Part shown: positions 3,001 through 13,719 of the stretch, piece after piece
Position numbering within the stretch: position 1 is the first letter of the stretch
Layout: each line of letters starts with the position of its first letter
From: a virus
Taxonomy: Duplodnaviria > Heunggongvirae > Uroviricota > Caudoviricetes
Virus record (IMG/VR): IMGVR_UViG_2850761752_000002
Length of the DNA stretch: 13,719 bases
Strand: one strand, 5' to 3'
Made by a program: the position numbers

Positions 3001-6000
3001 GAAAGCGGCACTGGCGCTCGGGCGTCGTGCAATTGGCGTTGAGCTGGAGACTGAACGTTTTGAGCAGACGGTTCGGGAAGTACAGGATTTAGTCAGCCAG
3101 AACGGATGATATTGAAGAATTAATTACGCGTCGTTATTATGCGGCTCCCGGCCCTTTAGCTCAGTGGTGAGAGCGAGCGACTCATAATCGCCAGGTCGCT
3201 GGTTCAAATCCAGCAAGGGCCACCATCACATACCGCCATTAGCTCATCAGGAAAGAGCGCCAGCCTTCGAAGCTGGCTGCGCGGGGTTCAAGTCCCCGAT
3301 GGCGGTCCATTATCTGCATCATGCGTTGTTAGCTCAGCCGGACAGAGCAATTGCCTTCTAAGCAATCGGTCACTGGTTCGAATCCAGTACAACGCGCCAC
3401 ACTTATTTTCCCTGGCTCGCTTTTGCGGGCTTTTTTTTTAAATGTCTCACAATTCAGACGGTTGACTGTTGTCTGGTTTGCGGGGAGTTTGTTAAAAGAA
3501 ACTGGCATGGTGAATCCCCCTGTGCGGAGGGGCAATCAGCGAGTAGGTATATGGGATAATCGCGGATTCAGGTGCTGGTACTGAATTCACCGGGAGGCAC
3601 CCGGCACCATGCAATGGCACATAGCGCCACTCTCCAGCCCCTCTCCGGAGGGGCTTTCTTGTGGGCAAAAAAAGCCCGCGCTGGGAGACGCGGGCGGCAA
3701 GGAATAAACAATAAAACGTGAAGTAATATTTCAGCTGGCGAATAATACCCCATAGTAGTCACTCTGCGCAACTGCGCGGTCTTTTTCGAATTGCGGGCTG
3801 TCGTCTCTCTTCTGCCATTGTCCTGTAACTTCCGGACTTCAGCCCGCTCCTCATTTTACTCACAATATTATCCCGGCCGGGAGGATTCATGGCTTTTAAA
3901 CACTATGATGTTGTCAGGGCGGCGTCGCCGTCAGATCTTGCGGAAAAGCTGACACATAAACTGAAAGAGGGCTGGCAGCCGTTTGGTAGTCCGGTGGCCA
4001 TAACCCCTTATACTCTGATGCAGGCGATTGCAGCAGAAGGTGCAGTAATCAGCGCCACCAGCGACCCGGAGTATTACTTTGTTGTGGTTCTGGCAGGGCA
4101 GTCAAACGGCATGTCGTATGGTGAAGGCCTTCCGCTGCCGGGGACATATGACCGTCCGGACCCGCGTATTAAGCAACTGGCGCGTCGCAGTACGGTGACA
4201 CCGGGCGGTGCAGCATGCAAATATAACGACATCATTCCGGCGGACCATTGTCTGCATGATGTGCAGGACATGAGCCGTCTTAACCATCCGAAAGCGGACC
4301 TGTCAAAGGGGCAGTACGGAACCGTGGGGCAGGGGCTGCATATCGCCAAAAAACTGCTGCCGTTTATACCGGCGAATGCGGGCATTCTGCTGGTTCCGTG
4401 CTGTCGTGGTGGTTCAGCGTTCACCACCGGAGCTGATGGCACATACAGTGACGCGAGTGGTGCCTCGGAGAATTCAACCCGCTGGGGTGTGGACAAGCCG
4501 CTGTATAAGGACCTTATCGGTCGAACAAAAGCGGCACTGGAGAAGAACCCGAAAAATGTGCTGTTTGCCGTGGTGTGGATGCAGGGGGAATTTGATTTTG
4601 GCGGTACGCCGGCAAATCATGCCGCACAGTTTGGTGCGCTGGTTGATAAATTCCGTGCAGACCTGGCGGATATGGCAGGCCAGTGCGTCGGTGGCTCTGC
4701 TGGCGGTGTTCCCTGGATATGCGGGGACACGACGTATTTCTGGAAGCAGAAGAACGAATCCACGTACCAGACGGTGTACGGCAGCTATAAAAATAAAACG
4801 GAAAAGAATATCCATTTCGTACCGTTCATGACCGATGAGAACGGGGTGAATGTGCCGACGAACAAACCGGAAGAAGACCCGGACATTCGGGGTATCGGTT
4901 ATTACGGTTCGAAATGGCGTGACAGCTCAGCCACCTGGACGTCACAGGACAGGGCGAGCCATTTCTAGACTGGCCCCCTGAATCTCCAGACAACCAGTAT
5001 CACTTAAATAAGTGATAGTCTTAATACTAGTTTTTAGACTAGTCATTGGAGTACAGATGATTGATGTCTTAGGGCCGGAGAAACGCAGACGGCGTACCAC
5101 ACAGGAAAAGATCGCAATTGTTCAGCAGAGCTTTGAACCGGGGATGACGGTCTCCCTCGTTGCCCGGCAACATGGTGTAGCAGCCAGCCAGTTATTTCTC
5201 TGGCGTAAGCAATACCAGGAAGGAAGTCTTACTGCTGTGGCCGCCGGAGAACAGGTTGTTCCTGCCTCTGAACTTGCTGCCGCCATGAAGCAGATTAAAG
5301 AACTCCTGAACCGCCCCGGGTTTCCTGGAGAGTGTTTTATCTGTGAACTCAGGCTGCCAGATCATCGTTTCCGATGGAAGCATAATAAGCTTTTTCTGCT
5401 TCTGCCGGAGGGATGTGGCCCAGCCTTTCCAGCAATCGTCGATTATTATACCAGTCCACCCACGTGAGTGTGGCCAGTTCCACTTCTGCACGGTTTTTCC
5501 AGCTCTTACGGTGTATTACCTCCGCTTTGTAAAGACCATTGATGCTCTCCGCCATCGCGTTGTCATACGAGTCGCCTGTACTTCCTGTTGATGCCAGTAA
5601 TCCGGCTTCCTTAAGCCGCTGTGTGTAGGCCAGCGATACATACTGAGAACCTTTATCACTGTGATGGACCGTGCCGGACGGTCGACGGGCCCATAACGCC
5701 TGCTCCAGAGCATCCAGCACGAATGTCGTTTCCATGGACGATGAGACCCGCCACCCCACGATGTATCCGGCAAACACATCAATAATGAACGCCACATAGA
5801 CGAAGCCCTGCCATGTGCTGACGTAAGTAAAATCAGCCACCCACAGCTGGTCAGGTCGTTCTGCCACGAACTGACGGTTTACGCGGTCGCCTGCGGCAAC
5901 GGCTTTCCGGCTGATGGTCGTACGGACCTTTTTACCCCGGAGAACACCGGCAAGTCCCATAACCGCCATGAGACGTGCCACAGTGCATCTGGCCACTCTG

Positions 6001-12000: not shown

Positions 12001-13719
12001 ACTCTGACGATACAGTGGCAGGTGTTCGCAGTATTTTCCCGTTAACACGCGGGCAAGTAACCCCGGGCCCGCGATACCACGCTCTATCGGACGGGATGGT
12101 GCCGGTGCTTCAACGATGCAGTCACATTTTGTACAGGCTTTTTTTACCCGTTCTGTGCGGATCACTTTCAGAGCGCTGCTCACCAGTTCCAGTTGTTCTG
12201 CGCTGACTTCCCCCAGATAATCCAGCTCACCGCCACACTCCGGGCAACAGCTTTCTTCTGGCTCCAGGCGATTTATTTCGCGGGGCAGATGCTCCGGTAA
12301 CGGGCGACGATGACGAGACTGTCGCAACTGGCGGGGAACCTGCGGATCGTCTTCCCGCCCACTGTAACGATCACTGTCCTGTTCGCGTTGTTTCAGCAGG
12401 GCCTCAGCCTGTTCAACTTCACGACGCAGTTTTTCAGAACGGGTACCGAACTGAACCGCCCCGGGAATCCTGGAGACTAAACTCCCTGAGAAAGAGGTAA
12501 ACAGGATGACTAAAAATACTCGTTTTTCCCCCGAAGTCCGTCAGAGGGCGATTCGTATGGTTCTGGAAAGTCAGGGCGAATATGACTCACAGTGGGCGGC
12601 AATTTGTTCCATTGCCCCAAAGATTGGCTGTACACCGGAGACTCTGCGTGTCTGGGTACGCCAGCATGAGCGGGATACCGGAGGCGGTGATGGCGGGCTC
12701 ACCACCGCTAAACGTCAGCGTCTGAAAGAGCTGGAACGTGAAAATCGTGAACTGCGCCGCAGTAACGATATCCTTCGCCAGGCTTCCGCTTATTTTGCGA
12801 AGGCGGAGTTCGACCGCCTCTGGAAAAAGTGATGCCACTGCTGGATAAGCTGCGTAAGCTGTACGGGGTCGGACCGGTATGCAGTGAACTACATATTGCC
12901 CCGTCAACGTATTACCACTGTCAGCAACAGCGACATCATCCTGATAAACGCAGTGCCCGTGCGCAGCGCGATGACTGGCTGAAGAAAGAGATACTGCGCG
13001 TATACGATGGGAATCATCAGGTATACGGTGTGCGTAAAGTCTGGCGTCAGTTGTTACGGGAAGGTATCAGAGTGGCCAGATGCACTGTGGCACGTCTCAT
13101 GGCGGTTATGGGACTTGCCGGTGTTCTCCGGGGTAAAAAGGTCCGTACGACCATCAGCCGGAAAGCCGTTGCCGCAGGCGACCGCGTAAACCGTCAGTTC
13201 GTGGCAGAACGACCTGACCAGCTGTGGGTGGCTGATTTTACTTACGTCAGCACATGGCAGGGCTTCGTCTATGTGGCGTTCATTATTGATGTGTTTGCCG
13301 GATACATCGTGGGGTGGCGGGTCTCATCGTCCATGGAAACGACATTCGTGCTGGATGCTCTGGAGCAGGCGTTATGGGCCCGTCGACCGTCCGGCACGGT
13401 CCATCACAGTGATAAAGGTTCTCAGTATGTATCGCTGGCCTACACACAGCGGCTTAAGGAAGCCGGATTACTGGCATCAACAGGAAGTACAGGCGACTCG
13501 TATGACAACGCGATGGCGGAGAGCATCAATGGTCTTTACAAAGCGGAGGTAATACACCGTAAGAGCTGGAAAAACCGTGCAGAAGTGGAACTGGCCACAC
13601 TCACGTGGGTGGACTGGTATAATAATCGACGATTGCTGGAAAGGCTGGGCCACATCCCTCCGGCAGAAGCAGAAAAAGCTTATTATGCTTCCATCGGAAA
13701 CGATGATCTGGCAGCCTGA

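Follow-up and report, generated by a model that had tools for sequence, protein, structure and literature searches.

An inverted pair of IS629 copies flanks the lysis segment of a prophage remnant in the Shigella boydii clade

The window (the whole stretch of DNA analyzed here, 13,719 nucleotides) is 100% identical to NCBI record CP068090.1. It belongs to a chromosome of the Shigella boydii clade, in which a lambdoid prophage remnant of ∼15 kb, devoid of a Q antiterminator, a repressor, and replication or structural genes, is sited between potC and potB. Two IS629 copies in opposite orientations bracket part of this remnant (Table 1), and the order of the genes between them is that of intact relatives: esterase, DUF1378, DUF826, holin, DUF1327, lysozyme, Rz, TonB_C, and ylcI. 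The first-pass annotation had placed a lysis cassette, a TonB_C gene, and an “RHH gene” in an interior of about 5.8 kb, and all of these were found there, the last as a member of the YlcI/YnfO family. Within the cassette, Rz carries an in-frame deletion of 75 nucleotides that also clips the embedded Rz1. The interior additionally contains 1.43 kb of IS66-family DNA and, from the SASA esterase gene, a 3′ remnant, neither of which the first-pass annotation mentions.

Table 1. Features in and around the IS629-flanked segment, in window coordinates
Feature	Position	Strand	Basis or remark
SASA-family (nanS-p-like) esterase, 5′ part, cut by IS2	3889..4965	+	Pfam DUF1737 and SASA
IS2 left-end remnant, 341 bp (IRL and most of orfA), cut by copy 1	4966..5306	+	NCBIfam IS2 TnpA, 1.5e-54
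IS629 copy 1, complete, 1310 bp	5307..6616	-	NCBIfam IS3 transposase match, 2.3e-92
Copy 1 IRR	5307-5331	-	25-bp terminal repeats
Copy 1 orfB	6239..5349	-	Reading frame
Copy 1 frameshift pseudoknot (predicted)	6165-6281	-	Rfam ALIL, 116 bits
Copy 1 orfA	6562..6236	-	Reading frame
Single base differing between copies	6358 (IS position 259), partner 12710		OrfA E69 in copy 1, K69 in copy 2
Copy 1 IRL	6592-6616	-	25-bp terminal repeats
Segment between IS629 copies, 5835 bp	6617..12451		Collinear with related prophages
Esterase 3′ remnant, same gene	6617..6989	+	Pfam DUF6645 in sister loci
Lysis cassette	7659..9686	+	Holin, DUF1327, lysozyme, Rz
Holin	7659-7874	+	Lysis cassette
DUF1327 gene	7879-8223	+	Lysis cassette
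Lysozyme	8274-8807	+	Lysis cassette
Rz	9303-9686	+	Lysis cassette
TonB_C-domain protein, 108 aa	10279..10605	+	Signal peptide and lipobox-like VMGC
YlcI/YnfO family (DUF3950) gene	10737..10937	-	Domain match
IS66-family element, outer 1.43 kb (3′ part of transposase gene), split by copy 2	11023..12451	-	NCBIfam IS66 transposase, 1.8e-133
Copy 2 target duplication AAC, left copy (right copy just past window)	12449..12451		L022; intact IS66
IS629 copy 2, first 1268 of 1310 bp; ends at 13761 in source, 42 nt past window	12452..13719	+	Inverted-repeat match to copy 1
Copy 2 orfA	12506-12832	+	Reading frame
Copy 2 orfB	12829-13719	+	Reading frame

IS629 belongs to the IS3 family, moves by a copy-out-paste-in route, and produces its transposase via a programmed −1 frameshift. 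Within the window, the two copies form an inverted repeat of 1,268 nucleotides (5349-6616 versus 12452-13719; arms 5,835 nucleotides apart) in which 1,267 bases are identical, far beyond chance expectation; compared base by base at their full length of 1,310 bp, they likewise differ at one position (99.9% identity). The near-identity of the pair and the E-to-K difference in OrfA, both read from the sequence at first pass, were thus reproduced; the boundaries needed small corrections, copy 1 starting at 5307 rather than 5306 (its end, 6616, was right) and copy 2 at 12452 rather than 12453. The terminal inverted repeats are imperfect (23 of 25 bp matching). The products of orfA (108 amino acids) and orfB (296 amino acids) are encoded in frames that overlap at GAAAAAGTGATG, and both match NCBIfam transpos_IS3; an ALIL pseudoknot, the predicted frameshift signal, scores 116 bits in both copies, and the public annotation gives a 404-amino-acid fusion with HTH_Tnp_1 and rve domains, a layout that would correspond to a frameshift-produced DDE transposase. 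Over all 1,310 bases, identity to the features annotated as IS629 in phage BP-4795 and Stx phage records is 97.3 to 97.9%. Like IS629 of Escherichia coli O157:H7 and Shigella, these copies are 1,310 bp long with termini starting TGAACCGCCCCGGG, combine orfA and orfB with the pseudoknot, and, in the case of copy 2, have a 3-bp target duplication; they represent a Shigella isoform, 2 to 3% diverged from the O157 copies. IS629-like elements are present in 4,260 of 5,426 complete E. coli genomes, and IS629 is mentioned in PMC9943667 as known for inactivating genes and causing genomic deletions.

Copy 2 splits an IS66-family element, of which the portion in the window is 87.6% identical to ISEc23 and the remainder, with TnpB and TnpA, follows the copy beyond the window. 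The first-pass annotation had proposed comparing the target duplications of copy 2 once its right end became available. In CP068090.1, that end reads GGTTCA followed directly by AACAGC, so that AAC stands on both sides; the intact IS66 of another locus (L015) reads GGGTACCGAACAGCATCC at the same site. Furthermore, two assemblies (L027 and L030) have copy 1 together with an uninterrupted IS66 at the copy 2 site. Copy 2 represents a simple insertion in the IS66-family transposase gene.

The flanks of copy 1 are unlike, TCC on the left and CTG on the right, and no target duplication is present. To the left, the esterase gene (99.7% identical in its 5′ part to the intact 621-amino-acid genes of L003, L005, L007, and L008) is interrupted by an IS2 remnant identical to the full IS2 of L003; the remnant runs to GAACTCC, after which the full element goes on with AGCGCC. 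To the right, the esterase gene picks up again 416 bp downstream of the point at which IS2 had inserted. The suspicion at first pass that the mismatched flanks reflected a deletion or recombination nearby therefore stands: copy 1 is placed on such a junction, and for that reason lacks a target duplication. The junction itself probably arose by IS-adjacent deletion or by recombination, although no genome was found that carries a complete IS2 with IS629 at the copy 1 site. Adjacent deletions that leave no target duplication are documented for IS3-family elements and can extend stepwise (PMC11708052). The case of IS150, an IS3-family element followed in the long-term evolution experiment with E. 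coli, is similar in that the IS is kept, DNA beside one of its ends is lost, and no target duplication results, a pattern that fits copy 1 as well as two further assemblies described below (L032 and L035); unlike the IS150 deletions, which were watched in real time, those considered here are reconstructed from natural isolates.

The same two-IS629 structure is found in S. boydii Sb227 (serotype 4; CP000036.1, the Sb227 accession according to PMC8767353). The S. boydii-clade loci in CP000036.1, CP026731.1, and CP068090.1 are alike in the potC/potB remnant, the interior, the IS629 bases, and the inverted orientation, with 99.9 to 100% identity over about 15 kb and nothing of substance different, apart from a few small internal indels in the Sb227 IS629 copies. 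The inverted pair is ordinary and has been present in published genomes since the sequencing of Sb227. Altogether, the pair occurs in six assemblies (L022, L028, L029, L031, L032, and L033), one of which (L032) lacks the E69K base change in copy 2. The whole window is absent from the complete genomes of E. coli and from the phage collection, where the best interior matches are related prophages with about 92% identity, and an exact-pattern scan of the GTDB species representatives covering both junction forms gave 0 matches.

A long inverted pair with such high identity could make the segment an actively flipping element, the orientation of which would affect the expression of the lysis genes, TonB_C, or ylcI. 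The 1,310 bp of inverted homology at 99.9% identity are ample for RecA-dependent inversion (the homology-length rule is restated in PMC8072062), and the first-pass notion that the copies could invert the intervening DNA by homologous recombination holds in principle; an inverted interior, however, was not encountered. In the window, as in each of the six assemblies that have the inverted pair, the interior has the ancestral orientation, collinear with intact relatives, although L022, L029, and L031 are 100% identical over their shared stretch and may be one strain, so that the independent observations of orientation number fewer than six, and each assembly is a single consensus in which low-frequency inverted isomers in a culture would stay invisible. 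Against a flipping switch also stand the damaged Rz and Rz1 and the lack, noted above, of the regulatory, replication, and structural genes; there is no site-specific invertase either and, hence, no plausible selected function is visible. We consider such an element very unlikely. A simple inversion model was separately rejected: the IS2 sequence to the left of copy 1, on its outer side, does not rejoin as one sequence with the IS66 sequence on the inner side of copy 2.

Near-identical IS629 copies around 5.8 kb of DNA also invite the interpretation, raised at first pass, of a composite transposon that moved into the site as a unit or is still mobile, and most of the segment is indeed duplicated about 390 kb away in one Shigella flexneri serotype 6 genome (CP162042.1). 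That extra segment, however, has other boundaries, which coincide exactly with the ends of IS2 and IS66, and includes an intact IS66 and only one IS629, copy 2 being absent; a search for the segment in a different context yielded no assembly with the pair and its interior elsewhere than at potC/potB. Moreover, the sequence broken by each copy is taken up again on its far side (the SASA gene, via the IS2 remnant, at copy 1; the IS66 transposase gene at copy 2), and the cargo is not foreign but collinear with the DNA beyond either copy. No single target duplication surrounds the unit, the outer flanks being TCC left of copy 1 versus AAC right of copy 2, and copy 2 is bordered by an AAC duplication of its own, with its site empty in L027 and L030. 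Both outer ends are IRR, unlike the natural pairing of IRL with IRR, which, given the biology of the IS3 family, would weigh against joint movement. Movement as a composite unit is accordingly hardly credible. The same inverted, near-identical copies, one without a target duplication, could instead be taken as the product of a single intramolecular replicative transposition that duplicated the IS in inverted form and inverted the DNA between, but the interior runs in the same direction as in intact relatives and as its own outside flanks, AAC is repeated directly around copy 2 alone instead of being split between the copies, and genomes with only copy 1 exist. IS3-family elements, furthermore, transpose mainly via a circle intermediate (PMC11708052), and we regard this origin as exceedingly improbable.

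Very probably, then, the locus results from two independent, ordinary IS629 insertions into an IS-riddled prophage remnant, their inverted arrangement being incidental. From the positions, identities, flanks, empty site, and collinearity described above, we infer the following order of events and mechanism of deletion. A lambdoid prophage would have entered between potC and potB, after which IS2 inserted into the nanS-like esterase gene. IS629 copy 1 would then have inserted into IS2, and what was left of IS2 (∼990 bp) may have been lost, along with 416 bp of the esterase gene, in an IS-adjacent deletion or through recombination with a second copy that has since disappeared; copy 1 would thereby have ended up without a target duplication. 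The terminase region would by then have been replaced by the IS66-family element, into the transposase gene of which copy 2 would later have inserted cleanly, in a sub-lineage, generating the AAC duplication. Given the collinear interior in the six assemblies, none of them shows an inversion and the pair does not qualify as a composite transposon: it is a possible substrate for a RecA-dependent 5.8-kb inversion, none of which has been fixed, and it has not moved as a unit.

The variable feature of the locus is IS-adjacent deletion. Such deletions recur: 655 bp beside copy 2 are missing in L032, and L035 (AKNB01000197) lacks 7.26 kb including the interior, which represents either a real loss or an assembly collapse of the two IS629 copies. 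One variant falls outside the simple two-insertion history and is not explained by it. In S. flexneri serotype 6, copy 1 is in the opposite orientation, with flanks shorter by 3 and 21 nucleotides; the left junction lies exactly 3 nucleotides outside the old IRR, and the 21 nucleotides are lost on the other side. The junction strings for the S. boydii/S. flexneri 6 locus are AAAGAAC followed by TGAACCGCCCCGGGAATCC and AAAGAACTCC followed by TGAACCGCCCCGGGTTTCC. The flipped copy has the ancestral sequence, and the differences among copies are private to single lineages and so uninformative as to which copy seeded the flip. Opposite orientations at one locus in close relatives, as for copy 1 in S. 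boydii-type and S. flexneri 6 loci, are also known for Wolbachia ISs, which invert in place by recombination between their terminal inverted repeats (Ling and Cordaux 2010, PMC3004938). Such in-place inversion does not alter the flanks, whereas the flipped copy 1 lost 3 and 21 nucleotides, so that terminal-repeat inversion cannot be the whole story. A speculative reading, to which we give a rather low probability, is that the flip records transposase-driven self-replacement: a new IS629 would have inserted beside the resident end in the opposite orientation, creating an unstable 1.3-kb near-palindrome, and an adjacent deletion would have removed the resident copy.

The importance of the locus is modest, as it typifies the IS-driven decay of prophages in Shigella. 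It can nevertheless serve as a worked example, with sister loci showing the empty site, a single copy, the inverted pair, a direct pair, and an interior deletion. The flip of copy 1 turns a pair prone to inversion into a direct pair prone to deletion, and the flipped copy with its trimmed flanks presents a small puzzle for researchers on the IS3-family mechanism; if self-replacement were the cause, the locus would be a natural example of the resetting of IS orientation.

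The inverted pair consists of two IS629 elements in every defining feature that could be tested. Both reading frames match the NCBIfam IS3-family transposase model, each copy contains an ALIL frameshift pseudoknot (116 bits), and full-length identity to IS629-annotated features of phage records is 97.3-97.9%; a survey of 5426 complete E. coli genomes found IS629-like DNA in 4260. As read from the junction sequences, copy 1 spans 5307-6616 (1310 bp) and copy 2 begins at 12452, so that the pair proposed in the first-pass annotation stands with both starts moved by one base (from 5306 and 12453). 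A repeat search of the window returned inverted arms of 1268 nt each (5349-6616 and 12452-13719) separated by 5835 nt, together with the 25-bp imperfect terminal repeats of copy 1 (5307-5331 and 6592-6616). The arms were reported as 100% complementary because of rounding: one base differs, at IS position 259 (window 6358 versus 12710), and the resulting E69 versus K69 in OrfA had been correctly read in the first pass.

Features of the window, in order, with the reading frames of the two IS629 copies
Feature	Position	Strand	Remark
Integrase	1-1107		
IS1	1324-2091		768 bp
Split DNA methylase	2078-2365 + 2525-3109		
tRNA-Met(CAT), tRNA-Arg(TCG), tRNA-Arg(TCT), then STnc100-like RNA	3150-3666		
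SASA/nanS-like esterase gene, 5' part	3889-4965		
IS2 left end	4966-5306		341 bp
Copy 1 orfB	6239..5349	-	
Copy 1 orfA	6562..6236	-	
Esterase 3' remnant	6617-6989		
DUF1378, DUF826, holin, DUF1327, lysozyme			order 3' of the esterase remnant
Rz	9303-9686		75-nt in-frame deletion, Rz1 also clipped
TonB_C protein, then ylcI			between Rz and the IS66-family fragment
IS66-family element fragment	11023-12451		1.43 kb, then copy 2
Copy 2 orfA	12506-12832	+	
Copy 2 orfB	12829-13719	+	

The window covers most of a ∼15-kb lambdoid prophage remnant with potC and potB as neighbors; beyond the window end lie the remainder of IS66, a tail-fiber-assembly remnant, and potB. Antiterminator Q, repressor, replication, terminase, and structural genes are absent from the remnant, and the prophage is dead. 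IS1 lacks a 9-bp target duplication and links the int/xis region directly to the split methylase; the early, regulatory, replication, and Q region of the prophage is missing entirely. The Rz deletion is bounded by short GATGTTGC repeats and takes with it codons 1 to 6 of the lipoprotein gene Rz1, which lies within Rz; the spanin is therefore probably defective. The tRNA genes and the STnc100-like RNA (139 bits, a strong hit for this sRNA family) occupy the stx position of related Stx phages, and no toxin gene is found there. A 12-nt stretch, GTTTGTTATTGG, at 1277-1288, just 5' of a small excisionase-like ORF, is missing in S. flexneri serotype 6 genomes. In other Shigella genomes (L003, L005, L008, and L010, around 12830-14350), the outer end of the IS66-family element (window 11023) directly abuts an IS110-family element of about 1.5 kb, a placement that looks like end-targeted insertion. 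Finally, a further IS with an HTH_Tnp_1 orfA lies just 5' of the TonB_C gene (window ∼10220) in L019 (3925-4198) and at contig ends in L020 and L034; these assemblies carry the window-type copy 1, and the window itself is free of the extra IS.

The two copies were acquired at different times. The left flank of copy 1 is IS2 up to ...AAAGAACTCC, where a complete IS2 goes on AGCGCC..., and to the right the esterase gene picks up again 416 bp past the site where IS2 had inserted; beside the IRL end, about 990 bp of IS2 and these 416 bp of the gene are therefore missing. Copy 1 has no target duplication, and together with the unlike flanks and the missing bases this bears out the deletion or recombination junction suggested in the first pass. 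The simplest origin would be an IS629 insertion in IS2 and then a deletion of neighboring DNA, adjacent deletions without target duplications being frequent among IS3-family elements (PMC11708052); recombination with a second IS629 copy, since lost, would give the same outcome. Copy 2 is a clean insertion: in the source sequence its flanks read ...GGGTACCGAAC and AACAGCATCC..., with AAC duplicated on both sides, and the uninterrupted IS66 element reads GGGTACCGAACAGCATCC at this site. Two sister genomes (L027 and L030) have copy 1 alone and an intact IS66, and copy 2 is the younger.

The first-pass annotation had proposed that the pair could invert the intervening DNA by homologous recombination or act as a composite transposon. 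After an inversion, the IS66 fragment would adjoin the IS2 remnant, and IS66 tnpB would adjoin the 3' remnant of the esterase gene. The required repeats are present, but the inverted isomer is not seen: all six inverted-pair assemblies (L022, L028, L029, L031, L032, and L033) have the same orientation, as consensus sequences in which rare isomers would be invisible, three of them 100% identical and maybe a single strain. The sequences interrupted by the two copies run straight on across each IS, and gene order between the copies is that of intact relatives. One-step replicative inversion, whose defining features are lacking, is excluded by this collinearity and because the AAC duplication is direct and surrounds copy 2. 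Nor does the pair have the defining features of a composite transposon, and that proposal is not supported: TCC on the outer side of copy 1 does not match AAC on that of copy 2, the copies were acquired separately, the cargo is native to the surrounding DNA, and the unit of both copies plus interior was never seen at another site in the assemblies compared. A related segment does occur in another context, in S. flexneri serotype 6 CP162042.1, where an 8.5-kb, 100% identical second copy of IS2 remnant-IS629-interior-IS66 lies about 390 kb away, adjacent to ipaH and tail-fiber genes (L015 5466-14004). Its boundaries coincide precisely with the IS2 end and the IS66 end, its IS66 is intact, and copy 2 is missing; therefore, it was not moved by IS629 pairing. 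The pot locus of the same genome (L014 12925-14538) has a 152-bp IS66 duplication on either side of copy 2.

Sister genomes show further states. The window and Sb227 are among those that carry the inverted pair; in L032, 655 bp are deleted right up to the copy 2 IRR (19873 onward). In L035 (AKNB01000197.1, 4200-5520), an IS2 remnant cut back to window 5192 is followed by a single IS629 and then by the DNA that flanks copy 2 on the right, a loss of 7.26 kb including the whole interior that could be an assembly collapse. Finally, all 12 complete S. flexneri serotype 6 genomes compared carry a direct pair, with copy 1 in the opposite orientation. At the site corresponding to window 5304-6637, this flipped form reads ...AAAGAAC, IS629 from IRL to IRR, and GGGTGAGG... 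(L002, L006, and L012-L014; e.g., L013 5804-7113); the L014 element is 100% identical to copy 1 of the window. The flipped form lacks TCC next to IS2 and, next to the esterase remnant, 21 nt (CTGGCGAATAGCGGAATGGCC); as these nucleotides belong to IS2 and to the esterase gene themselves, the window form came first. Both forms are real, since the right junction of the window form recurs in independent short-read contigs (L019 and L020) and the flipped form in L017. An IS can flip in place by terminal-repeat recombination (PMC3004938), which would leave the flanks untrimmed, and an exchange between the two copies would turn the interior, not the IS. The trimmed flip may instead have arisen when a second, oppositely oriented IS629 landed 3 nt beyond the end of the resident copy 1, which an adjacent deletion would then have removed; no such intermediate was found among the sister genomes compared.

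CP068090.1 contains the window at 100% identity (L022 3180-16898, a locus found by exact-protein look-ups in NCBI assemblies), and the same structure is present in CP000036.1, identified in one study (PMC8767353) as strain Sb227 of S. boydii serotype 4 and as the complete genome most closely related to S. flexneri serotype 6; for the latter serotype, genomes such as CP099865 and CP162080 are available (PMC11708030). Among complete E. coli genomes and phage records, the window was not found, the best matches being related prophages of about 92% identity. The two-copy structure is already in published Shigella genomes, and IS-rich decay and rearrangement of Shigella chromosomes are well documented (PMC8072062). 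The inverted pair is correctly observed and its biology ordinary; the sole mildly puzzling point is the trimmed flip of copy 1, which converts the inverted pair to a direct pair in S. flexneri serotype 6.
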